Source: a virus | Taxonomy: Duplodnaviria > Caudoviricetes | Virus record (IMG/VR): IMGVR_UViG_3300035505_000313 | Span: 1 to 64,000 of that record | DNA: 64,000 nt | Reading direction: 5' to 3' (one strand) | Shown here: positions 6,173 to 53,648 of the stretch, piece after piece | How positions within the stretch are numbered: the stretch's first letter is position 1 | Layout of the letters: every line of letters starts with the position of its first letter | Notes under the pieces: model-generated | Told to the model about the DNA's origin: nothing | What the model saw: the letters and a program-made list of their open reading frames with translations, nothing else | Database searches by the model: none | Made by a program: the position numbers and the translations under genes

Positions 6173-6196
6173 ATAATATATACTTAAAATGAATTT
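6173..6196 (-). promoter_or_regulatory. early-type phage promoter (AAATT-N11-TATATTAT)
   Basis: Motif 43 nt upstream of the 6130 start. Confidence 0.6.
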
Positions 6197-6641: not shown

Positions 6642-6659
6642 CTATGTTCCGAAAAATAA

Positions 6660-7561: not shown

Positions 7562-8422
7562 TTACTTAATCTTCTTATCGAAATCAGCCATAATGTTTGC
7601 ACACTGTGATGACCAATTCTTAGAACTGGAGTAATTCTTGTTCATCCCTACTAACGTTGCTCCGTTATAATATTTACCATTAGTTGATAGATAGTTTTTC
7701 GCTATCGTTGGTGTACATTTAACTAAGCAATCGCTCATCGAACTAAATGAGCTTGCAGACGAGTAAGCACTGCCATCATAGGCACACCATGAAAGTATGT
7801 TATTCTTATTCACAGCGAGGTTGGACTTACCCCATCCACTTTCTACTGCAGTTATTGACATTAAAGCCACTGCATTAATTCCGTCTACAGCTTCACAATA
7901 CTTAAAATAGTATCCTAAACCTGCCAAACCAGTTCCCTTTAAATACTGGTTTAATTCATCAGCAGTTGCAAGTGATTCTCTCTTTAAATTAAAGTTCTTC
8001 AAAGAGCTTGCTGTTGGAGTTGCTTTAAATCCACTTGCTATCAATGAAATCTTACGCTTAGATTCATAAGTCTTATACTTCTTAAGTTTCTTAGAGTAAG
8101 TATCTTCCATTTTCTTAATGTTCTTAGTGAGCTTCTTAAACTTCTCACTATACTCATCATTGGATTTCTTTAGCTTCTCGTTACTTTCTGTTAATGACAA
8201 AATATCAGAATCTTGTTCCACAATTCTGTCATTCATTGTTTCAACCTTCTCTTGCAACTCGTTAATTGTAGTCTGTTGCTCATCTACAGTCTTCTGGCAA
8301 GACACATAACGTGTTCCATATAGTCGTAGAGTTACAATATTGACAGCAATAATACATACTACCAATATAATTAAGAAACCTTTTAACAGGTTCTTGATTC
8401 CAGACTGATTGTTTTTCTTCAT
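7562..8422 (-). CDS. membrane-anchored GH73 glucosaminidase (peptidoglycan hydrolase) with coiled-coil stalk
   Basis: N-terminal TM helix, coiled coil, then INAVALMSITAVESGWGKSNLAVNKNNIL and Y...W motifs typical of the glucosaminidase domain. Confidence 0.8.
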   Translation of the reverse strand: MKKNNQSGIKNLLKGFLIILVVCIIAVNIVTLRLYGTRYVSCQKTVDEQQTTINELQEKVETMNDRIVEQDSDILSLTESNEKLKKSNDEYSEKFKKLTKNIKKMEDTYSKKLKKYKTYESKRKISLIASGFKATPTASSLKNFNLKRESLATADELNQYLKGTGLAGLGYYFKYCEAVDGINAVALMSITAVESGWGKSNLAVNKNNILSWCAYDGSAYSSASSFSSMSDCLVKCTPTIAKNYLSTNGKYYNGATLVGMNKNYSSSKNWSSQCANIMADFDKKIK

Positions 8423-8521
8423 AAAGTTTACCTCCTATAATCAGCAACATATTTTCTTCTTTCTTTTATGTCACCATAATTGATTGATTATCGTTTGTTG
8501 ACGGTCTGATTATTTTTGGAT

Positions 8522-8533
8522 TATATCTATGTT
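8522..8533 (-). promoter_or_regulatory. late-type promoter AACA-N6-TA
   Basis: AACA-TAGATA-TA 100 nt upstream of the glucosaminidase. Confidence 0.45.
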
Positions 8534-8589
8534 AACTCACTTAAAGGGAAGTGAGATTATTTTCAAAATTATATTTTTGTTACATTGTC

Positions 8590-9155
8590 AAAAAAAAGAA
8601 TTAAAAGGAATTGGAGAAAGACCATAAATTAAGCCTTTCTCCAAAATACGAAAAAATAATTTCATTACTCCCTAATAAAGGAGAGCTTATATAAAAAGAC
8701 ATTGGACCTATCATGCAAAAATCCTTTATTTGTCTTTTTACCAAATTTAATTGCTGGCATAGAATTAGATAGTCGGAAGTAGATATCAGTATTACATATG
8801 AAACTCTATCAAGTCCTATACCAGCATGAAAGTGTTGTTATTTTGTTTGCTAAAAGCTTAGAAAGTTAAATAGAAGGTGTTATGGGCATAATATAATTAT
8901 GAAAAGAACCCATTGCTATTAGACCTTCTAAACTTTTTATACGCAAACTTTAAAAAAGCATCCTGTTTTTACAAGCAGAAACAGTTATACACATAGTATT
9001 AAAGAACAGGAAAACTTTTATACCAACTGTTTCTGCTTCGTGTGGATTTGGAGGAACAAAAACCGCATCCACACACAAATATAATTCAGAGATGAGATAT
9101 AGAGAAAGCGTACTAGCCGACACACACAATGCTAATACATTCCCTCTAATCTCAC
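8590..9155 (-). ncRNA. putative early non-coding RNA made of ~7 tandem hairpins
   Basis: ORF-free; TATATTAT promoter at 9160-9167, terminator at 8611-8644 with A8 run; stems at 9091-9155, 9039-9075, 8973-9038, 8862-8936, 8753-8825, 8693-8739, 8668-8685. Confidence 0.6.
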
Positions 9156-9159
9156 TATA

Positions 9160-9177
9160 ATAATATATAGATAAAAA
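9160..9177 (-). promoter_or_regulatory. early-type phage promoter
   Basis: TTTTATCTATATATTATT, identical over 18 nt to the motif at ~14779-14796. Confidence 0.65.
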
Positions 9178-9203
9178 TAGCTTTAAAACACATTACTTAC
9201 CTA

Positions 9204-11549
9204 TCATATATTTAGGTGTTTAGCTTTCTCTTGATTCTTAAAGAGAAAGGCTTTCCTCTTATCTGTAGCATTGGAATTTAACATATCTTCCATTGTGCTG
9301 TTAACAGTGTCATTATCATCGACTTGAGCTATCATAATATTTCTTTTTTCTGGGTTCATAGTAGTTTCCCAAAGCTCATCAGCGTCCATTTCACCCAAGC
9401 CTTTTAACCTAACTCTGGACTTAGGTATAGCTATTTCATAGATTCCTGAATAAGCTTCACACAAACTTCCCATGCTGTCACCATTGTCAGTCTTCGTAAT
9501 CACAGTATCAAATGTTACATACTTTAATGTACTTACATAATCAACGAAGTCTTTTGCATACTTTTTAAGTTGCTTTATATCAACTGTAATAAACGAATCC
9601 TTATACAACCCAGATATCTCTGATTTGTCTTTGACTATGAAATCACCTAACTTCTTAACGAAGCTACCGATTTTCTTTGTTGTATCATCTTGAATGTAGA
9701 TTGCTACTTCCTCAATCAGATACCTATTGATACCAAAGTGTTCCTCATAGTATCTTAACCTTTCTGCATACTTACCTAAATCTTTCATAAGTGCAGTTAC
9801 ATTTTTAACATTCTTCTTGTTTACTTTGAAAGTAAACTTCTTCTCGATTACATTATTGATGTAAGAATTGTATTCCTCATCATCCAAGAAGTAATGTCTT
9901 TTCTTGTTAACCAGTATACTGTATAAAGGTGGCATAGCCACTTTAACATGTCCTGCTTCAATGAGACCAGGCATATGATGATAGAAGAATGACAATAACA
10001 AGCAAACAATATGTTTACCATCTGAATCAGCATCAGCCATTATTATAATGGTATGATACTTCAGTTTGCTAATATCAAACTTCTCATCTAAGCAGTCTCT
10101 CTCACCAGTAAGTATGAATGTTAAATCAGCAAATTCCTTGTTAGTGAATATTTTGACAACATCCATATTGTTAGTATTGAGGGGTTTACCCCTTAAGGCA
10201 TATATAGCCTGAAACATCTTATCTCTACAGTCTTTTGCTGTGCCACCCGCTGAGTTTCCCTCGACAATGAATAATTCACGCTCTTCGGGATTTTTACTGT
10301 TACAACCTGCTAACTTAGACAAATCAGAAATGATACCAAGACTACCACTTCCTTTCTTAGTAGTCATTTCCTTTGCTTTCCTAGCAGCTTCAGAAGCTTT
10401 GGCTGAGAGAATAATCTTATTGCAAATCTGTCTAGCTAACTTAGGATTATCTCTAAGCCAATCAGACATTTGTGCATTGACAACTTTCTGCACTGCTCCT
10501 TGCAACTCTGAGTTAGTTACCTTTGCCTTGGTTTGGGAGTCATACAAAGGCTCAGGATGTCTTACAGAAATAGCAGCAATCAATCCATTTCTTACATCAT
10601 CACCAGAAATATCAAGATTCTGGTCTTTCTTAGTAAGAATATTTTCATCAGCAATGTATTTTTTCATAATATTTACGATTGCCAATTTGAAACCAGTTAC
10701 ATGAGTACCATCTTCCGATGTGTATAACGAGTTACAGAAAGATTTTGTGATTTCATTACCCTCTTTCTGCCATGCTAAAGCTATGGTAACTTCAATCTTA
10801 ATTTTCTTCTTTCTCTTAGTAACTTCTATAGAATCAGAAAAAATAACAGGAGTATGAATCAAATTCTTACCTAATGTCGGAACATAGTCTTTTAAGCCAT
10901 TTTTATGGAAATACTCAATAGACTTCTTAGTGTCCAGATTCTTAATGATGTATTTAATTCCACCATTAACATAGGCTTTCATATCCAACTCATTGCCAAG
11001 ATAATTGAAATCAAACTCATGACTTTCCATAATATCTTCATCAGGATAAAACTCAACAGTAGTTCCTTTCAACTTACTTGGTTTACCTTTAGAAAGTTCA
11101 GTAGTCTTAATTCCTTTCTCGAATGTCTGAGTATACTCCTTACCATCTCTGTGTGTGGTTACATTGAAATGGGTACTTAAGCCATTTACAGCTGTAGTAC
11201 CCACACCATTTAGACCACCAGCAACAGAATACTCGTTGTTATTAAACTTACCAGATGAGTGTAATTTAGTAAAAGCCTTTTCAATGGCTTTTGGTGGAAT
11301 ACCACGTCCTTCATCTTTCACTCGGCACATGCCTTTCTTGTTACTCAATTCAACGATAATGGTATCACCAAAGCCATTCATAGCTTCGTCAGTAGAATTA
11401 TCAACAACTTCTTTAACAAGGTGATTATTACCTGCAATGCCTATCTGTCCGATATACATTGTAGGTCTTGTTCTCACATTGTCAGGAAATTCCTTTACTT
11501 CAATACTGTCCTCATTATAATCAGACTTTTTCCTATTCTTTGTTGCCAT
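9204..11549 (-). CDS. gyrB: DNA gyrase / type IIA topoisomerase subunit B
   Basis: VRTRPTMYIG, EVVDNSTDE, GHKL GGLNGVG, TOPRIM IVEGNSAGG and DADSDG, KGLGEM. Confidence 0.96.
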   Translation of the reverse strand: MATKNRKKSDYNEDSIEVKEFPDNVRTRPTMYIGQIGIAGNNHLVKEVVDNSTDEAMNGFGDTIIVELSNKKGMCRVKDEGRGIPPKAIEKAFTKLHSSGKFNNNEYSVAGGLNGVGTTAVNGLSTHFNVTTHRDGKEYTQTFEKGIKTTELSKGKPSKLKGTTVEFYPDEDIMESHEFDFNYLGNELDMKAYVNGGIKYIIKNLDTKKSIEYFHKNGLKDYVPTLGKNLIHTPVIFSDSIEVTKRKKKIKIEVTIALAWQKEGNEITKSFCNSLYTSEDGTHVTGFKLAIVNIMKKYIADENILTKKDQNLDISGDDVRNGLIAAISVRHPEPLYDSQTKAKVTNSELQGAVQKVVNAQMSDWLRDNPKLARQICNKIILSAKASEAARKAKEMTTKKGSGSLGIISDLSKLAGCNSKNPEERELFIVEGNSAGGTAKDCRDKMFQAIYALRGKPLNTNNMDVVKIFTNKEFADLTFILTGERDCLDEKFDISKLKYHTIIIMADADSDGKHIVCLLLSFFYHHMPGLIEAGHVKVAMPPLYSILVNKKRHYFLDDEEYNSYINNVIEKKFTFKVNKKNVKNVTALMKDLGKYAERLRYYEEHFGINRYLIEEVAIYIQDDTTKKIGSFVKKLGDFIVKDKSEISGLYKDSFITVDIKQLKKYAKDFVDYVSTLKYVTFDTVITKTDNGDSMGSLCEAYSGIYEIAIPKSRVRLKGLGEMDADELWETTMNPEKRNIMIAQVDDNDTVNSTMEDMLNSNATDKRKAFLFKNQEKAKHLNI

Positions 11550-14402: not shown

Positions 14403-14779
14403 TATCCATCTAATCCTCCTTTCTCATTAATTTCTTAATAATCTCTACTATCAAGAAATCTTCAATGGGTTTTCCACCATTAATGAAATTTATGGCAATA
14501 TGAAATATTTCAATTATTATAATAAAATCCATAATGCCAATAATAGCAAACACTAATTTACCAACTTCTTACTACTTTCCTTAAATTATTAACAGGTTTA
14601 CAGACTTCCGTTTTTAATATCTTCAAATATCATAGCAAAAAGTCTAATAATAAGCATACTTAGAATACCTATAGCTAATATTCCAATTCCTATTGCTAAA
14701 GCTCCTAAAAAGTATAAACCAATATTCAATATTATCATATGCTAATTCCTCCTTTCTGTTATATTTTTAGTACTATTTA

Positions 14780-14796
14780 ATAATATATAGATAAAA
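14780..14796 (-). promoter_or_regulatory. early-type phage promoter
   Basis: TATATTAT motif heading the small-membrane-protein/pspA operon. Confidence 0.6.
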
Positions 14797-14830
14797 GAAA
14801 GGATAATACCATTTTTAGCATTATCCTTTC
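14797..14830 (-). terminator. intrinsic terminator after nrdD
   Basis: GAAAGGATAAT/ATTATCCTTTC. Confidence 0.65.
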
Positions 14831-14837
14831 CATTCTA

Positions 14838-15737
14838 TTATAAGTGAGTTACACGTTGATTAATTTCCTTCGTCTTACCAAAGTTCCAGAAATTCTCACC
14901 TAAATAACCACAAGTTCTACGTACAACTGTTAATTTATCCTTATCTGTGCAACCACATTGAGGACAAACCCATGTTATACCATCTTCTTTAGTTCCTATC
15001 TCTCCTTCATACCCACAATTACCACAACTATCTGATTTAGTATTGAACTCAAAGTACTGAATATTTTCATACCCATACTTGATTAATTCCTCAATAGCTG
15101 ATATATTTTTAGTAAGTGAAGGAAGCTCAATATAAGAAATGCAACCACCAGTAGAAAGTGACTGAAATTGAGATTCAAACTTAAGCTTATCAAAAGCGTT
15201 AATCTCTTCTCTGACGTCAATATGATACGAATTCGTATACCAATCTTTATCAGTTACATTCTCAATGATACCGAATTTCTCTCTATCAATCTTGTTAAAA
15301 CGATAGCATAAAGATTCAGCAGGTGTACCATATAAGGAGAATCCTAAGTCAGCACCACCCTCTTTTGTTTCTCTCCAAGTTTGACATTTGTCTTTCATAT
15401 ATTTCATAACTTTCAATGCAAACTCAGTTCCTTCAGGTTTTGTGTGTGAACAACCTTTCATAAGGTAAGTCATTTCATAAATACCAATGTAACCCAATGA
15501 AAGTGTTGAATAACCACCAGTAAGATAATCATCAATAGTTTCACCAGCTTTTAATCTAGCAATAGCACCATGTTGCCAATGAATAGGTGAAACATCTGAT
15601 AGTGTACCCTTTAGTTGTTCATATCTACAAATTAATGCTTCCTTACAAAGCTCTAATCGCTCATCAAGAAGCTTCCAAAATTTTTCTTCATCACCATTAG
15701 CTATGATAGCAATCTGAGGTAGATTGATTGAGACAAC
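14838..15737 (-). CDS. nrdD: class III (anaerobic) ribonucleotide reductase, exon 3
   Basis: Begins VVSINLP; contains GTPAESL, YTNSYH, CPQCG Zn site and the RRTCGYLG glycyl-radical motif. Confidence 0.93.
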   Translation of the reverse strand, partial: VVSINLPQIAIIANGDEEKFWKLLDERLELCKEALICRYEQLKGTLSDVSPIHWQHGAIARLKAGETIDDYLTGGYSTLSLGYIGIYEMTYLMKGCSHTKPEGTEFALKVMKYMKDKCQTWRETKEGGADLGFSLYGTPAESLCYRFNKIDREKFGIIENVTDKDWYTNSYHIDVREEINAFDKLKFESQFQSLSTGGCISYIELPSLTKNISAIEELIKYGYENIQYFEFNTKSDSCGNCGYEGEIGTKEDGITWVCPQCGCTDKDKLTVVRRTCGYLGENFWNFGKTKEINQRVTHL

Positions 15738-15810
15738 CATAAATACCCTGTCTTTCGACATATTTATCTACCTCAGTAAAGGGATTAGAGTACACCATAA
15801 ACATGTAGTA

Positions 15811-16704
15811 CTACTTCTTTTTACGAATTGGAAAAGTATAACCCTTCTCAAGTAATATATCTTGATGGTATTTTCCTACATTAATATTTACTATTGTCTT
15901 TCTTGGTATACCAAGCCTATCAGCAATTTCTCTATGTAATAACGATGTTGTCTTTAATAATTCTGCTGTTTTTAAAACTTGGTCTTCTGTAAGATGACTA
16001 AAACATTTCTTTCTAATTGGATAATCAATACCATCTAAATGGTATGTATCACCTTCAGAAATTTTCTTAATTGTATTAGGATGACAATTAAATTTATTTG
16101 AAATAGCCTTATAACCCAAATCTGAATTCTGAAGTAAATCTATAATTTCAAATATTTGGTCTTCGCTAAAATTAATTTGCTTATTAAAGCCTTGTTCTCT
16201 AATTGGATAATCAATATCACTATAAAACCAAGTTTCACCGCAATTAATATCACTAATCATTTCTCTAGTACAATTAGGGAATTTCTTAGCAATATCAACC
16301 ATAGATAAATCAGTCTCTTTTAGATATTTTCTAATTTTAGCAACTTGCGTCTTTGTTAATTTAACTGTATGAGTAGTTTTACCTCCCATATTGGAGTTAT
16401 ACCCATCTTCATATGAGTTATATTTTCTAATATAATATACCTCTTTCTTATTTAATTCTTTTTCAGGTATATCATCTTCCAATACTTCCCATTTAAAGTT
16501 TTCAGCTCCTAATTTTCTAATCATCTTATAGAACATAGAAAAATACGTATGGTCATTTTTGTTTAAAGCAGATTTTAAATGTTGAGTTTTCCTAGCTTCT
16601 AAATTATTTAGGGTTTGCCCAATATAAACACCATGAATAATAGTGTCTTCTGCTTTGTAAATTAATCCTTTTCTTATTCTTTCCATAGTTAAATCTACCT
16701 CCAA
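15811..16704 (-). CDS. intron-encoded GIY-YIG homing endonuclease
   Basis: GLIYKAE...VYIGQT, LNKKEVYYIRKYNS, three C-terminal HTH-like repeats; lies between the intron R and S elements. Confidence 0.88.
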   Translation of the reverse strand: MEVDLTMERIRKGLIYKAEDTIIHGVYIGQTLNNLEARKTQHLKSALNKNDHTYFSMFYKMIRKLGAENFKWEVLEDDIPEKELNKKEVYYIRKYNSYEDGYNSNMGGKTTHTVKLTKTQVAKIRKYLKETDLSMVDIAKKFPNCTREMISDINCGETWFYSDIDYPIREQGFNKQINFSEDQIFEIIDLLQNSDLGYKAISNKFNCHPNTIKKISEGDTYHLDGIDYPIRKKCFSHLTEDQVLKTAELLKTTSLLHREIADRLGIPRKTIVNINVGKYHQDILLEKGYTFPIRKKK

Positions 16705-16716
16705 TCAAATTTATTA

Positions 16717-16728
16717 TAATTCTTTGTT
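16717..16728 (-). promoter_or_regulatory. late-type promoter inside the intron driving the endonuclease
   Basis: AACA-AAGAAT-TA 13 nt upstream of the endonuclease ATG. Confidence 0.55.
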
Positions 16729-17010
16729 AGGTAGTTTCAACCGAAGTACTATTTAGTTTGTTCCATTATACTCGTTGAACCTTTTTTGCATTTAAAAATG
16801 CAAAGCTTTGGCTGCTGATTATCCATTGTTACAGTACTTAGGACACCATATTTCTACGATGCTTTTATTTCACCTTATACCATCTTAACTTCTTGTTTCT
16901 GCTTTCGCATCCATACTGTTCTTCGCAGTAGGAGAGTTAAGCTTTAGGAACTCCCAGCATTTTTTGAAACTTTACATCACAATATTTCTATTATGAAGGG
17001 GCATTAGTCT

Positions 17011-17439
17011 ACCCTTATTAAATCTTCCTTCCCATTTGTACTTTCCAATCTCACTTTCAGGTTCATTATAATATTCTACATACTCTTTTGTCTTCTTCCA
17101 AGGACTTAAGAATGAACGACAACCCATACATGAGAATACATTTCCTTCATAAATCTCTTTCATCTTCTTAGAAGAAATGTAATCTGGATAAAGTCTCTTA
17201 GCATTACATTCAGCAGCTAAATGAGTAAGGTAATCATATTTCCCATCATTCATCAAGTTGTTAAATGGATATAATACATAGACTAATTTAGGGAAAGCAG
17301 GTGTAATATATACTCCATACTCATTTTTGATTCCCTCTATACGCTGTCTTAGAACTTCCTCAATGATATCAGCATTTTCTTGGATATATTCATCATCTTC
17401 ATCCACAAGATTAAGGAACAACGTTAAAAATGGGGATTG
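17011..17439 (-). CDS. nrdD: class III ribonucleotide reductase, exon 2
   Basis: QSPFLTLFL...PAFPKL...LYPDY...SCMGCRSFL...GRFNKG; 429 nt, in frame. Confidence 0.92.
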
Positions 17440-17866
17440 CAGCCCCCTGACATATATTTCTATACATCCCTAGACTATCTCTTTACCCTCGTTCACGTTA
17501 GGCATATAGGAGACGAACCCTATACGGAATACTCTAATATTTGTATTCGTAGATGGCACTTCAGCAAAAAGAATTTCACTTTAAGCTTACGAATTTCATA
17601 ATCTTATTTCTAAGACCGTATATTCTAGTCGTTACACCCACTAAGAATTCACACTCTTAGCTTGGCACGATATTAGGCATGACTTAAGGTAATATACTAC
17701 TGACATAATATATCATCTCCCTTCATATTTTACAAAGGGAATATTACCTTAAATTTTAGCCATTCGTCGTTAGCTATTGTATAAATATTATACAATAACA
17801 CCCTATATTTATAGGTTCACCATCTCATACTCTATGATGTTTCCACCATAGACAGCCATTATATTA
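17440..17866 (-). mobile_element. group I intron 1 in nrdD (427 nt, ORF-less)
   Basis: Splicing joins LMTTNG|QSPF; exon ends in U, intron ends in G; R-like GUAACGACUAG and S-like AGAUAGUCUA give P7 GACUA/UAGUC. Confidence 0.88.
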
Positions 17867-18736
17867 ACCATTTGTCGTCATAAGTGTATTAATCTGATAC
17901 TGAATAGTCTGAACACCAGCTTTTAACTCAGATTTAGTTCTTTCAGCAACCAAATCTTCAAGCTCTTTTCCTGTATAACCCATTTCTTTATATACTTTAG
18001 TATACTTATCTTTAGAAATACGTAAGTACTTACCTAAGTGGCTTAGGTCTACAGACTGCCCACCATACTGATTAGAAGCCACAGCCGCAATTACCTGTGT
18101 AGTAACAGTACAAGCTACTTGGAAAGACTTAGGTGTCTCAATCATTTTTCCATTCATACATGTACCATTATCAAGGATATCTCCTATGTTAATAAGACAA
18201 CAGTTAAACATACCAAACTGTAAGAAGTAATCTTCATCATGGAAATGCAATACACCATCTTCATGTGCCTTAACAATTCTTTCAGGTAACAAAATTCTAT
18301 TAGTCATATCAATAGATGTAGCACCTGCAATGTAATCACGTTCTGTACTTAACAACATAGGATTCTTATTTGAATTCTCTGTGTTAGTATGGTAATCTTT
18401 ATGGTTAACTACATCAATCAATTTTTTATCTGTTGTATTCTTAATCAATCTGAGACTTTCATGTCTCTCTCGATATAAGATATATTTTTTAGCAAGCTGA
18501 AATTTATCCAATTTCATAAGTTCTACTTCCACTCTATCTTGAATTTCCTCAATACTTACAGTTGTAACTTCATTATCCTCTAAGTATTTTAAAATCCTTC
18601 CCTCAATTAAACGAATCTCCTCAATGGATGCTTTGTCAGCAATATCCTCAACATCCTTGTTAGCATTACTGATTGCATGAAAAATCTTTGATGCATCGAA
18701 TTCTACAATGTCACCATTACGTTTCTTAACGTGCAT
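17867..18736 (-). CDS. nrdD: class III ribonucleotide reductase, exon 1 (ATP cone)
   Basis: VKKRNGDIVEFDASKI ATP cone, NENSNKN-like motif, HFHD, FNCCL, ASNQYGGQS; spliced product 732 aa. Confidence 0.93.
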
Positions 18737-18782: not shown

Positions 18783-18861
18783 GTGACAAATTTCGCACTA
18801 AAATCCCCTAGTTTTCCTTGACGGAACATACAAAAAATTAAGATTAAGCAGACATAAAAAA

Positions 18862-23438: not shown

Positions 23439-23957
23439 ATGGCTATTAATCTAAGTACAAGTTTATTCTCTAATCTTAAACCTGTGGATTTAAGTAATTA
23501 TAATAGCTCAAGTGGTTTTGTAACATTAGATGATTCATTAGAAGATGCTGAAGATAATAAACTTAACTTTATGAAGATATCTCATAAAATCAATTATGAA
23601 GATACAATGACAATGTATGATGAGAATATCTTATATAATTATAGAAGTTACTTATATGACTTTAGAATTGGATTAGAGATTACAGAAGATTATTTCTATA
23701 AACCTGAGTTAGTATCTCAAGAATTATATGGAACACCAGATTTATGGTATTTAGTAATGTGGATGAATGAAGAAATAGCTAGTCCATTAGAGTTCAATAA
23801 TAGATATATCTGGGTATTTGACCCTAGTAAAATTAATGTATTGAATAAGTTGATTGAGTGTAATAAAGAAAAGCTTGAAGATAATCATTTAGAGCCAGAT
23901 TATGTTGAAGACTTGACTATAAAACCAGTAGTATTGAGTTCTTCTAGGTTCTTATAA
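23439..23957 (+). CDS. baseplate wedge protein (T4 gp53/LysM-like)
   Basis: YKPELVSQELYGTPDLWYLVMWMN motif. Confidence 0.7.
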   Translation: MAINLSTSLFSNLKPVDLSNYNSSSGFVTLDDSLEDAEDNKLNFMKISHKINYEDTMTMYDENILYNYRSYLYDFRIGLEITEDYFYKPELVSQELYGTPDLWYLVMWMNEEIASPLEFNNRYIWVFDPSKINVLNKLIECNKEKLEDNHLEPDYVEDLTIKPVVLSSSRFL

Positions 23958-24015
23958 AAAAAAAAGAAACCTTGTTATTAGGTACAGAAAAACTAATGTT
24001 TATTCTGTTTGTGTA
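23956..24015 (-). repeat. conserved ~58 nt 3' element / terminator, copy 2
   Basis: Reverse complement matches 6583..6641 with one mismatch; both begin about 10 nt after a stop codon. Confidence 0.85.
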
Positions 24016-24025
24016 TATTAGAGGA

Positions 24026-24346
24026 TTATGCTCTTACTAAATCCTCTAATACACTAAAAGTTTCACTCTGAAGTTCCTTCAGAGTCTTCCAAGTTCTTGG
24101 AAGAACCTCCTTAGCTTCGAAGAACTCAACTGTTGACTCATTGAGTTCTCCGAAAAGTTCATGACCTAAACTAAAGTCATGTTCAGAGACTACTTTCATT
24201 AACACACAAGCAACCTCTGAATGTAATGTAGCTGATAACATAATATCAACTTCCTTAGTTGTTGACAGACCTGATTGCATCATATTAACTGCTTTCACGT
24301 CTGCTCCTTCAATAGCTACTTTCATCATTTCGATTGTCTTATTCAT
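24026..24346 (-). CDS. hypothetical early protein
   Basis: 106 aa ORF flanked by the shared leader and 3' element. Confidence 0.7.
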   Translation of the reverse strand: MNKTIEMMKVAIEGADVKAVNMMQSGLSTTKEVDIMLSATLHSEVACVLMKVVSEHDFSLGHELFGELNESTVEFFEAKEVLPRTWKTLKELQSETFSVLEDLVRA

Positions 24347-24351
24347 AATAC

Positions 24352-24401
24352 TACCTTTTACATGAGCTGGACTTGCTCATGTCCTTTCCGCTTTCGCTTT
24401 G
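24352..24401 (-). ncRNA. structured 5' leader (GNRA hairpin + H-type pseudoknot), copy 2
   Basis: CAAA-GC GAAA GC-GGAAA-GGAC-ATGAGC-AA-GTCC-A-GCTCAT-GTAAAAGGT. Confidence 0.65.
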
Positions 24402-51059: not shown

Positions 51060-52655
51060 TTAATTATCATATGGTGCATACATATCTACAACATTGCAAG
51101 AACATACATCATTACATGCACAAGTTGTTCTAGTTTCACATAAGGGAACTGAACGAGAATTACATCCACATGTAGTAAAGCTTGTTCTATCTACACAATC
51201 ACAGCTTTGACTAGAAGCAGTACGTGATACACAACTATAATCAGTTGAGTAAACTGTTCTAGCTTCACATATTGTATCTAATGCAGTAGTTGTACGCACA
51301 TTACATGTACAATCTACAGCTTGTGTTGTACGTGCAAGGCATACTTTATCAGCAGCATAAGCTGTCCTTGATGCACAATCCGAACTGTATTCTATATAGT
51401 TTGTTGACGTTCTTGATGTACAAACTGACTTTTGGGTTGTTCTACTATTACAAGTACATATTTCTTTGTAGTCAAAAACTTGGTCATTTTTGTCTATATT
51501 ACAACTGCAAGAAACTCCTATATATGCTGTAACTGATACCCTAGATATACAAGTATAATATGAGTAAGTACGTGAATTACAAGTGCAATTAGCTCCACTA
51601 TCAGAGCAAGCAGAATAACTTCCAGAATATCCTGAAGCTATTTTTACAGCATTACATGTACAAGCAAATATACTATCAGAAGTATTTACTGAATTACAGT
51701 CACATGCTGGAACATATTGAGTTGTAGTTCTAGCTGGACATACACTATTATTTGAATTTGTACGTGTGTCACATAAGCAACAACTATTATATTGCTTAAA
51801 ACTAAGTGTATCACTATAACCAACAGTATTACAAAAACAAGCTGGTTTTACTGCAGATGTACCTACAGTATTACATTTACATGAAGCACCTACTCCATAA
51901 TCAACTGAAGTCCTAGTATTACATTCACATGATTCTGAGTAAGTAGTTCTAGATACACAATCGCATACATCTAAAACCTTACCATCTTTGTCAGGTGCTA
52001 TTCTAGAAAAACATGTACAAGTTGTTCCATAAGTAATATCTTTCTTAGGTTCTTGAACTATACTAACTCTTGAACCACATAATATAGCATCTTCATGGTC
52101 ATTTGCTGTTCTAGAATCACAATCACAAGTTACTACACCTAAATCAATATATCCTGCTGTTCTAGAATCACATACACAAGTTATTCCATACACATTAGGA
52201 GAGTACTCAGAAGTTCTAGAATTACACATACAAGCTTCATCAGCATGAATTCTAGAATTACATTCGCAACTTGCATAATAATAAGTCCTTGCTTGACAGA
52301 TAGGAGTAGAATATGGTTTCTCAACTTCTTCACATTCCAAAGTTCTAGAATTACATTCACAAGTGGATGTATTATAAGTAACTATAGTTGTTCTAGACCC
52401 ACATATCATTGTGGTATTTGGTATAAAGTTTGTGACTTCTTTTAAATCTGCTGGTGTCTTTTCCATTACATGATGAATATGACCATTACAATCAGCTCTA
52501 TCAATAGCTTCTCTACGATTATTCATATCTTGTACTAGATTCTTAAGCTGATTTAAAGAACCACGAAAGTTAGCAAAAGGGTCATAACCACGAAGCTTAA
52601 CCATTTCTTCATGTATATCACCTAATGATATTTCTTTTTTATTCCATTCAGACAT
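51060..52655 (-). CDS. CxCxxR-repeat Cys-rich protein with conserved N-terminal leader
   Basis: 531 aa; dozens of CxCxSR/CxSRT units. Confidence 0.8.
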   Translation of the reverse strand: MSEWNKKEISLGDIHEEMVKLRGYDPFANFRGSLNQLKNLVQDMNNRREAIDRADCNGHIHHVMEKTPADLKEVTNFIPNTTMICGSRTTIVTYNTSTCECNSRTLECEEVEKPYSTPICQARTYYYASCECNSRIHADEACMCNSRTSEYSPNVYGITCVCDSRTAGYIDLGVVTCDCDSRTANDHEDAILCGSRVSIVQEPKKDITYGTTCTCFSRIAPDKDGKVLDVCDCVSRTTYSESCECNTRTSVDYGVGASCKCNTVGTSAVKPACFCNTVGYSDTLSFKQYNSCCLCDTRTNSNNSVCPARTTTQYVPACDCNSVNTSDSIFACTCNAVKIASGYSGSYSACSDSGANCTCNSRTYSYYTCISRVSVTAYIGVSCSCNIDKNDQVFDYKEICTCNSRTTQKSVCTSRTSTNYIEYSSDCASRTAYAADKVCLARTTQAVDCTCNVRTTTALDTICEARTVYSTDYSCVSRTASSQSCDCVDRTSFTTCGCNSRSVPLCETRTTCACNDVCSCNVVDMYAPYDN

Positions 52656-52670
52656 ATATTCTTCTCCTTT

Positions 52671-53648
52671 CTATTTATTAAATATACTAACTCCACCATC
52701 ACAAGTGCATACTGATTGGCAAGCACATGATACTCTAGATTCACATTCGGAAGTTGAACGAGAATTACAATAACAACCAAAGTTAGTAGTTCTATCAACA
52801 CAGCTACATGAGAATACTTTAGTTACTCTAGAGTTACAAGCACAATCCGTTATTCTTGCAGTTCTATTATTACACTCACAAGATTCTGTTGCTGTACTTC
52901 TAGAATTACATGAACATGTTACAACTGTTCTATTCTCGCAACTACATCCAACATAAGTTAAAATCTCATCAGCATTACATTCACAGCCTTTAGGAGCTTC
53001 TTTATCTATTTGTATTCTTGAATCACAAGTACATACTTCGACTAACTCTGACGGACAGTCGGAGTTAGGATATTTTACATAAGATGTAACACTATCCATA
53101 GTGTTAGTTACTCTTGATTGACAGGTAATTATAGGTGTATATGTATAACCACTTCTGTCATTACATAAACAATCACTTTCATTACCATATATAGAATCAT
53201 CTCTATAAGTAGTTCTAGCTAAACAAGTTACATCAGGAACATAATTAGTCCTAGATGAACAAACAGTATCAACGCTATATGTAGTCCTAGAGCTACATAT
53301 AGCGGATACTTGTGGATTTGTTACTTTATCACACGTTAAAGTTCTAGTGTGACATTCACATGTAATATTATTATTGCAATCACATGTGTATAACTGTTCA
53401 GAAGAACAGAGAGATTTTATATTTGGTAGTCTTTTAAATACTGTGTTAGTATTTACTTCATTTCCGTAATTTTCTACTGGCATTGAAAAGTCAGTATGTT
53501 CAGGACAATAACTTTCATTTCTTACTTCATTCATAGAATTAAGCATTTCTTTTAGCTCATTCAAAGAATCGTATTCTTCAGTTTTATATCCACCCTTACT
53601 TTTCAATCCACCATGTAAATCACCTAATGAATCTCTATAATCAGCCAT
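52671..53648 (-). CDS. CxCxxR-repeat Cys-rich protein with conserved N-terminal leader
   Basis: 325 aa; SD GGAGG. Confidence 0.8.
   Translation of the reverse strand: MADYRDSLGDLHGGLKSKGGYKTEEYDSLNELKEMLNSMNEVRNESYCPEHTDFSMPVENYGNEVNTNTVFKRLPNIKSLCSSEQLYTCDCNNNITCECHTRTLTCDKVTNPQVSAICSSRTTYSVDTVCSSRTNYVPDVTCLARTTYRDDSIYGNESDCLCNDRSGYTYTPIITCQSRVTNTMDSVTSYVKYPNSDCPSELVEVCTCDSRIQIDKEAPKGCECNADEILTYVGCSCENRTVVTCSCNSRSTATESCECNNRTARITDCACNSRVTKVFSCSCVDRTTNFGCYCNSRSTSECESRVSCACQSVCTCDGGVSIFNK

Follow-up and report, generated by a model that had tools for sequence, protein, structure and literature searches.

Early transcription units and structured RNAs in large phages

AR9-like and phiKZ-like phages encode two sets of RNA polymerase (RNAP) beta-like proteins. 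For the Bacillus jumbo phage AR9, the early promoter consensus has been defined experimentally as AAATATATATTAT-(6N)-G+1 (Lavysh et al. 2017, PMC5312081), and these promoters are served by the injected virion RNAP (vRNAP) without new protein synthesis (PMC5312081). The minus-strand unit described here resembles the AR9 early units in its promoter (11 of 13 bases), in the promoter spacing and in the G start, and it likewise holds accessory cargo without assigned function, as AR9 early units often do. However, the AR9 early units in PMC5312081 encode proteins (the word "noncoding" is absent from that text), whereas the present unit is a 560-nt ORF-free chain of hairpins.

Among structured RNAs, ROOL (RF03087) and GOLLD (RF01998) share with this unit a phage-borne location, a length of several hundred nucleotides, a transcription unit of their own and abundant structure, but they adopt an ornate multi-junction fold, while the present RNA is predicted to be a linear hairpin chain and has no adjoining tRNA genes. 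Staphylococcus aureus RNAIII, about 500 nt long, also contains many hairpins, and the C-rich loops of RNAIII and RsaE pair with Shine-Dalgarno (SD) sequences. The likeness lies in the many hairpins and the few exposed C/U-rich loops able to occlude a ribosome-binding site (RBS); the differences are that only one CCUCC loop occurs here, that complementarity to phage targets does not exceed chance and that there is no homology. CsrB and RsmZ are hairpin-chain RNAs that titrate a protein, and the present unit is likewise a stand-alone non-coding chain of hairpins that could titrate a protein, although it has no repeated loop motif. Long non-coding RNAs recur in jumbo phages, for example in phage K, PA5oct and Rak2-like phages, and we know of none with a known function. 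Those of Staphylococcus phage K have been reported in PMC9241854. Finally, promoter-plus-stem-loop cassettes (PeSL) shuffle genes in T4-type phages (PMC2839356, PMC4122927); they have in common with this locus an early promoter and a terminator stem-loop on either side of cargo that varies, in a hyperplastic slot flanked by core genes, and they differ in phage group (T4-type, here AR9-like), in promoter and in cargo, which is an RNA here instead of an ORF.

A probable early, ORF-free unit in the accessory block between gyrB and gyrA

The DNA analysed here (the window) covers positions 1 to 64,000 of an IMG/VR virus record of 75.5 kb, whose CheckV completeness of 31% identifies the record as a jumbo-phage fragment. 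The GC content of the window is 32%, and no tRNA or tmRNA was found in it by ARAGORN. At 8423-9203 the record has its largest ORF-free gap, which lies between genes that are all on the minus strand and holds the hairpin unit, within an accessory block that separates gyrB from gyrA. In kin phages gyrA directly follows gyrB with nothing in between, whereas the interval here spans about 5.7 kb of lineage-specific genes plus the hairpin RNA; the 286-aa endolysin-like gene downstream of the gap is absent from the kin records G001-G005. A scan of genome contigs with this 286-aa protein for a host clue returned no match.

The initial annotation had described an ORF-free minus-strand unit running from an early-type promoter to a U-tract terminator around some seven long hairpins, and this architecture held up. 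The promoter-to-terminator unit spans 9172-8590, contains no credible ORF and would give an RNA of about 560 nt from 9153 to about 8595, for which ViennaRNA predicts a linear chain of about eight hairpins (H1-H7 plus the terminator). The features, in window coordinates, are as follows.

9204-11549, minus: gyrB-like gene, complete (PF00986 at residues 714-769 of 781)
9180..9192, minus: TGTGTTTTAAAGC, a possible upstream box of the promoter, some 12 nt ahead of the core
9172-9154, minus: promoter core ATCTATATATTAT plus the 6-nt spacer TATAGT; 11 of 13 bases agree with the AR9 early consensus
9153, minus: predicted transcription start G+1 by the AR9 rule, at the foot (first paired base) of H1
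9154-9093, minus: H1, predicted 62-nt 5'-terminal hairpin with a 13-nt loop carrying UGUGUGUG (dG -24.3, z -4.8, pairing probabilities near 1)
9075-9039, minus: H2, predicted 9-bp stem with a 19-nt loop carrying UUCCUCCAA (z -3.7)
9038-8973, minus: H3, predicted hairpin of 66 nt whose 14-bp base is perfectly paired (inverted repeats I5 and I19; z -5.3)
8948-8845, minus: H4, predicted long irregular hairpin domain of 104 nt (dG -30.0 for 8845-8950; high pairing probabilities)
8826-8752, minus: H5, predicted 75-nt hairpin with a 13-bp base (z -3.9)
8741-8691, minus: H6, predicted hairpin, base of 10 bp (I15), loop UUUGCAUGA (z -2.4)
8686-8667, minus: H7, predicted short hairpin in which CUCUCC pairs with GGGAG (from pairing probabilities)
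8644-8590, minus: intrinsic terminator, 13-bp stem at 8644-8611 and a U-rich tail ending in U8 (terminator scan; dG -18.9, z -6.4)
8445-8451, minus: TATGTTG motif; the ATG of the endolysin-like gene follows about 25 nt further on
7562-8422, minus: endolysin/glucosaminidase-like gene, 286 aa, downstream neighbour of the gap

The promoter assignment draws on the match to the AR9 vRNAP consensus (PMC5312081) and on further copies of the motif in this genome and its kin. On the minus strand the gap opens directly past the gyrB stop with TGTGTTTTAAAGC-N12-TATATATTAT-TATAGT-G, and the site itself (ATCTATATATTAT-TATAGT-G, 9172-9153) has the correct spacing and a G at +1, a base that is present in four of the five copies of the motif in the record. 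These five copies of the core, TATATATTAT[AT]A[AT], are all on the minus strand, each upstream of a co-oriented start: the 19-mer TTTTATCTATATATTATTA has an identical second copy at 14796-14778, and further core copies lie at 6182, 22678 and 31337, each ahead of a co-oriented gene. The 9-mer TATATATTA shows the strongest enrichment upstream of genes in the genome. Kin jumbo phages carry the core 35 (G003), 18 (G002) and 6 (G004) times, mostly 20-90 nt ahead of an SD sequence and ATG. As this locus documents, the AR9 early consensus reaches distant uncultivated kin. The possible upstream box TGTGTTTTAAAGC resembles (A)AcCGTATTAAA / TGTTTTAAA, found at equal distance in many kin promoters (e.g., G003:53071 and G002:106303). 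RNAP beta-like proteins (PF00562) occur in all four complete kin jumbo phages, with two each in G002, G003 and G004, whereas a PF00562 search of the 75.5-kb fragment, itself 31% complete, found no RNAP gene; the vRNAP assignment is thus taken from the kin and the motif. By its AR9-type promoter match, the hairpin unit is predicted to be an early (virion-RNAP) transcription unit.

Two observations concern other early promoters of this group. The second copy of the 19-mer stands 38 nt before a strong SD and an ORF for a 46-aa hydrophobic membrane peptide (MIILNIGLYFLGALAIG...; 14598-14741, minus), which lies in what would otherwise count as a gap (14403-14837). In addition, the kin genome G002 has at least six early promoters (79830, 82618, 83393, 147340, 178286 and 258898, plus) followed by near-identical leaders of about 180 nt that begin with GTGAATAAAGTAAATAATTACTTATATTCA; different ORFs stand behind these leaders, which form a repeated 5' leader family.

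Coding potential was assessed against the habits of this phage, in which 69 of 80 genes have a strong AGGAGG-type SD. The longest frame in the unit has 59 aa and a TTG start, no ORF combines a good SD with an ATG, and the alternative codes examined (code 4, TAG=Q, TAA=Q) open no convincing frame. The idea of a decayed gene was rejected, as the RNA holds neither a yqeY remnant nor an alternative-code ORF.

A predicted linear chain of stable hairpins

Pairing probabilities across the unit were nearly all close to 0 or 1 (ViennaRNA), and each hairpin alone exceeded its own dinucleotide shuffles (p<=0.03). Taken whole (a 586-nt stretch), the unit reached a minimum free energy (MFE) of -170.9 kcal/mol, with z -8.84 versus shuffles. 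Because shuffles are a lenient control, the unit was also set against 412 native windows of 560 nt from this genome; in this GC-regressed comparison it scored z -2.98 and ranked second. In these models the fold is real, not extreme, with a moderate excess over native sequence. The other top native windows comprise the nrdD intron region and structured gene cassettes. The most stable 560-nt windows of the genome, at 72801-73360 of the record (beyond the window) and at 23801-24360, correspond to two structured gene cassettes.

The minus strand of the unit folds 31 kcal/mol better than the plus strand, against a norm for the block of -23.7 (mean; sd 14.7). Such asymmetry is typical of a GC-skewed gene block and is therefore no evidence for strandedness by itself; strand asymmetry as a sign of RNA-level selection was rejected as the GC-skew norm of the block.

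Beyond the chain itself, the H3 loop UCCUGUUCUU (9011-9002) is complementary at 9 of 10 bases to AAAAACAGGA (8970-8961, minus; I19), a candidate for an H-type pseudoknot that we raise as a possibility only, with a chance estimate of about 0.05. For the H2 loop an alternative partner is predicted, again complementary at 9 of 10 bases, in the terminator's 5' arm (9056-9047 with 8645-8636). No two hairpins are alike, and direct repeats in the unit are limited to short two-copy ones of 11-19 nt. A repeat array of the type III antitoxin, CRISPR-like or RNA anti-CRISPR kind was rejected for want of tandem direct repeats of one unit. A CsrB-like sponge was also rejected: the RNA has seven GGA, with an unpaired probability of <=0.03 for six and 0.55 for one. 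CAGGAUG occurs once, at 8965-8959, which is within chance.

A group I or II intron was discarded as an identity for the unit, with no Intron_gpI/gpII match at E<=10 and with gyrB complete. Elsewhere in the window, nrdD lies in three pieces (17864-18736, 16972-17421 and 14838-15761, minus), a GIY-YIG homing-endonuclease ORF (15811-16704) stands within the nrdD region (14838-18736, minus), and sub-threshold Rfam group I intron matches fall at 17450-17609 and 16772-16959 (26.5 and 27.7 bits; E ~1e-4 in a small search). This layout suggests that nrdD is split by two group I introns, as in T4 nrdD.

An orphan RNA in a variable slot

Searches for relatives covered several levels of similarity. Rfam, queried permissively with 8000-9700, gave chance matches only (E>=0.28), with no match to ROOL, GOLLD or any other Rfam family to be credited even at E<=10, and the whole window gave none at E<=0.01; the sensitivity of Rfam here is indicated by its detection of the weak nrdD group I introns (E ~1e-4). 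The unit had no blastn match among 50,697 phage records, and within its own genome BLAST found the promoter plus chance 12-15-mers only. Against ten kin jumbo-phage records the promoter alone matched (the first 28 nt), and nhmmer, run on 1.19 Mb from four complete kin genomes and on close gyrB/endolysin contigs, returned nothing at E<=10. Three single-sequence covariance models (R1, 9154-8973; R2, 8950-8845; R3, 8832-8690) reached a best foreign match of E=0.054, to short AT hairpins. A metagenome scan for the H3 stem pair yielded 115 unrelated hairpins and no nhmmer match, and an IMG/VR pattern scan for the 5' motif yielded only G003 and a chance match inside a gene. An additional 5' similarity to G003:56102 (GAGATTAG-GGG) was set aside, as that gap folds weakly (z -3.0) and may hold a 16-aa ORF. 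The hairpin RNA is an orphan, with no homolog in the Rfam, BLAST, nhmmer, covariance-model or pattern scans.

The phage stands apart: in the records searched, the nearest gyrB is 49% identical, and the nearest match to the 286-aa protein, on contig L223, is 50% identical. A 6.8-kb contig from another sample (L222; JGI 3300035512) equals window 8296-1517 reversed at 99.94% identity; its end at 8296 leaves about 130 nt to the gap, so it gives no second copy of the RNA. The one relative with this block in common, L223 (1-1664), presents the gyrB 3' end, a terminator, a AAATATATATTATAAA promoter, a yqeY-like ORF and the endolysin-like gene, with gyrA further on. The slot ORF there encodes a 155-aa YqeY-domain protein (PF09424) behind an AR9-type early promoter; the RNA is absent from L223, and the hairpin RNA holds no trace of yqeY. 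As in PeSL, the cargo that an early promoter and a stem-loop enclose differs at this one comparison locus. With a yqeY-like protein as cargo in L223 and an RNA as cargo here, the slot looks cassette-like, able to be occupied by protein and RNA alike.

ORF-free early units were also found in kin phages. The 306-kb genome G003 has two adjacent ones at 52555-53058 (minus; equal to 12555-13058 of contig L061), about 250 and 155 nt long, each with promoter TATATATTATAATTGTGA, 4-5 hairpins and a strong terminator (z -8.1 and -5.3), with UCCCCCU and GUCCUCCAG exposed in the first. At least one ORF-free early unit, of about 360 nt, lies in G002. These units are analogous, not homologous, to the 560-nt unit.

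A proposed stand-alone early RNA gene and its rivals

The reading that we favor, at a probability of roughly 0.55, is that 9153 to about 8595 (minus) is an independent early gene whose product, a non-coding RNA of about 560 nt, acts in trans as a decoy or scaffold. It brings together the AR9-type promoter, the lack of a translatable frame, the hairpin chain, the strong terminator and a separate promoter-like motif for the next gene. Under this model, injected virion RNAP would transcribe the unit as soon as infection begins, the RNA would owe its stability to its 5' and terminator hairpins, and it would then bind a host or phage factor, with a protein or ribosome-binding regions (reached through one or two exposed CU-rich loops) as candidate partners; it would not serve as a set of specific antisense RNAs. 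If transcribed as predicted, the unit would be a further case in which a giant phage uses an immediate-early promoter for a long non-coding RNA and not for a protein. As the orphan of an uncultivated phage it adds little alone, and it is clean and well delimited, with a predicted +1, a 3' end and eight defined stems.

The main rival, which we regard as unlikely, is that the unit is a by-product without function in trans: hairpin-rich filler left by PeSL-like cassette shuffling, transcribed and serving at most as a 3' UTR or stabilizer of the gyrB mRNA and as an insulator before the late endolysin-like gene. The gyrB gene lacks a terminator of its own, and read-through from it would end at 8611, so part of the RNA could be the structured 3' UTR of read-through gyrB transcripts. 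The orphan status of the RNA, the different cargo of the same slot in L223 and the shuffling of genes by promoter-plus-stem-loop cassettes described in T4-type phages (PMC2839356, PMC4122927) fit such a history. What speaks against it is that 560 nt of filler would be unusual in a tightly packed genome, where this gap is the largest, that eight hairpins are each non-random and the unit ranks second among the 412 native windows, and that the unit has a full-consensus early promoter of its own.

A broader form of the favored reading, quite unlikely in our estimate, would extend it to the group: AR9-like jumbo phages may devote early vRNAP cassettes to fast-evolving hairpin-chain RNAs, of which the present one would be a large member acting as a decoy in the first minutes of infection. 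Unrelated in sequence, these RNAs would share a design in which a 5' hairpin begins at +1 and a chain of 4-10 stems closes with a strong terminator, and the decoyed host factor could be an RNase, an RNA-sensing defense protein, or ribosomes bound via the CCUCC loop.

The initial annotation had instead proposed a polycistronic array of antisense sRNAs, or a decoy array, whose loops pair with the SD/AUG regions of host or phage mRNAs, a design comparable to the C-rich loops of S. aureus RNAIII/RsaE or to P1 c4 RNA. We consider this very unlikely. The plus-strand words resembling translation starts on which it was built do lie at the positions given, several of them in loops. None heads an ORF of >=8 aa with an SD, and exposed CU-rich RNA is confined to GGAGGAAC in H2 and AACAGGAAAA in H3. 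The AAAGGAGAG segment, put forward as a presented anti-SD element, lies inside the H7 stem, and several of the anti-SD words are stem halves that pair with GGAG-like or SD-like partners in H7 and in the terminator. Ten anti-SD 5-mers (words from UUCCUCCUUU) occur where dinucleotide shuffles have 3.9 (P=0.017), a nominal enrichment in favor of the array that vanishes against native windows, 10% of which reach this count. CCUCC occurs once in the RNA (P=0.13), in the H2 loop, with an unpaired probability of 0.58; UUCCU is exposed once, in H3, and the remaining words, most of the supposed anti-SD set, form one side of internal stems. No enrichment was seen for CAU (7 vs 8.3).

Duplexes were also predicted with the translation-initiation regions (TIRs) of the phage. 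The H2 GGUUUUUGUUCCUCC and H3 UUUUCCUGUUCU loops and the 3' tail are predicted to bind phage TIRs above coding controls, which counts in favor of the array, but they do so generically: for the H2 loop (UUCCUCCAA), 75% of phage TIRs reach <= -8 kcal/mol versus 22% of controls, amounting to generic SD affinity. The initial annotation had named loops lacking TIR complements above shuffled background as grounds for refutation, and for phage targets this was the outcome: paired with 79 TIRs, the H1, H2 and H3 loops gave best duplexes that did not surpass shuffled-loop values (P=0.23-0.26), with minima of -17.0, -19.2 and -16.8 against -15.4, -17.8 and -15.3 kcal/mol (sd 2.1). In the analogous kin unit at G003:53071, UCCCCCU is exposed in a hairpin loop and GUCCUCCAG in an inter-hairpin stretch, yet such exposed motifs occur in just 2 of 10 ORF-free or long-leader early units. 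The unit contains no internal promoters or canonical terminators and shows no sign of being cut into separate sRNAs.

A replication origin or primer transcript in the style of T4 ori or ColE1 RNA II is highly improbable: a non-coding transcript of about 550 nt that has its own promoter and lies among the replication genes, beside those for gyrase, would suit it, but the locus has no iterons or meaningful direct repeats, its GC equals the genome average, the cumulative GC skew runs straight through it and turns near 31 kb, the strong terminator gives a discrete RNA, and the kin have nothing at this position. Equally remote is the idea that the unit encodes one or more very small peptides (e.g., 8913 MGSFHNYIMPITPSI or 8665 MKLFFRILEKGLIYGLSPIPFNSFF), for although short frames with weak SD-like words are present and a true 46-aa membrane peptide stands behind the sister promoter at 14789, no frame here has the properly spaced AGGAGG-type SD of most genes of this phage, and the frames sit within stable stems, one of them crossing the terminator.

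A candidate separate promoter for the endolysin-like gene

The TATGTTG at 8445-8451 probably marks a separate late promoter for the endolysin-like gene, and this own promoter motif argues against the RNA being the leader of that gene. TATGTT[CG] also stands just upstream of the starts at 997, 540 and 18830 and in the cassette copies at 6643 and 72889. The sites (991-997, 534-540 and 18824-18830, minus; 6643, plus; 72889 of the record, minus) often follow a T-run and lie about 20-30 nt before starts. The phiKZ late promoter is TATG with the start at G (as quoted in PMC5312081), and by this analogy TATGTT[CG] is a candidate late (nvRNAP) promoter word of the present phage.
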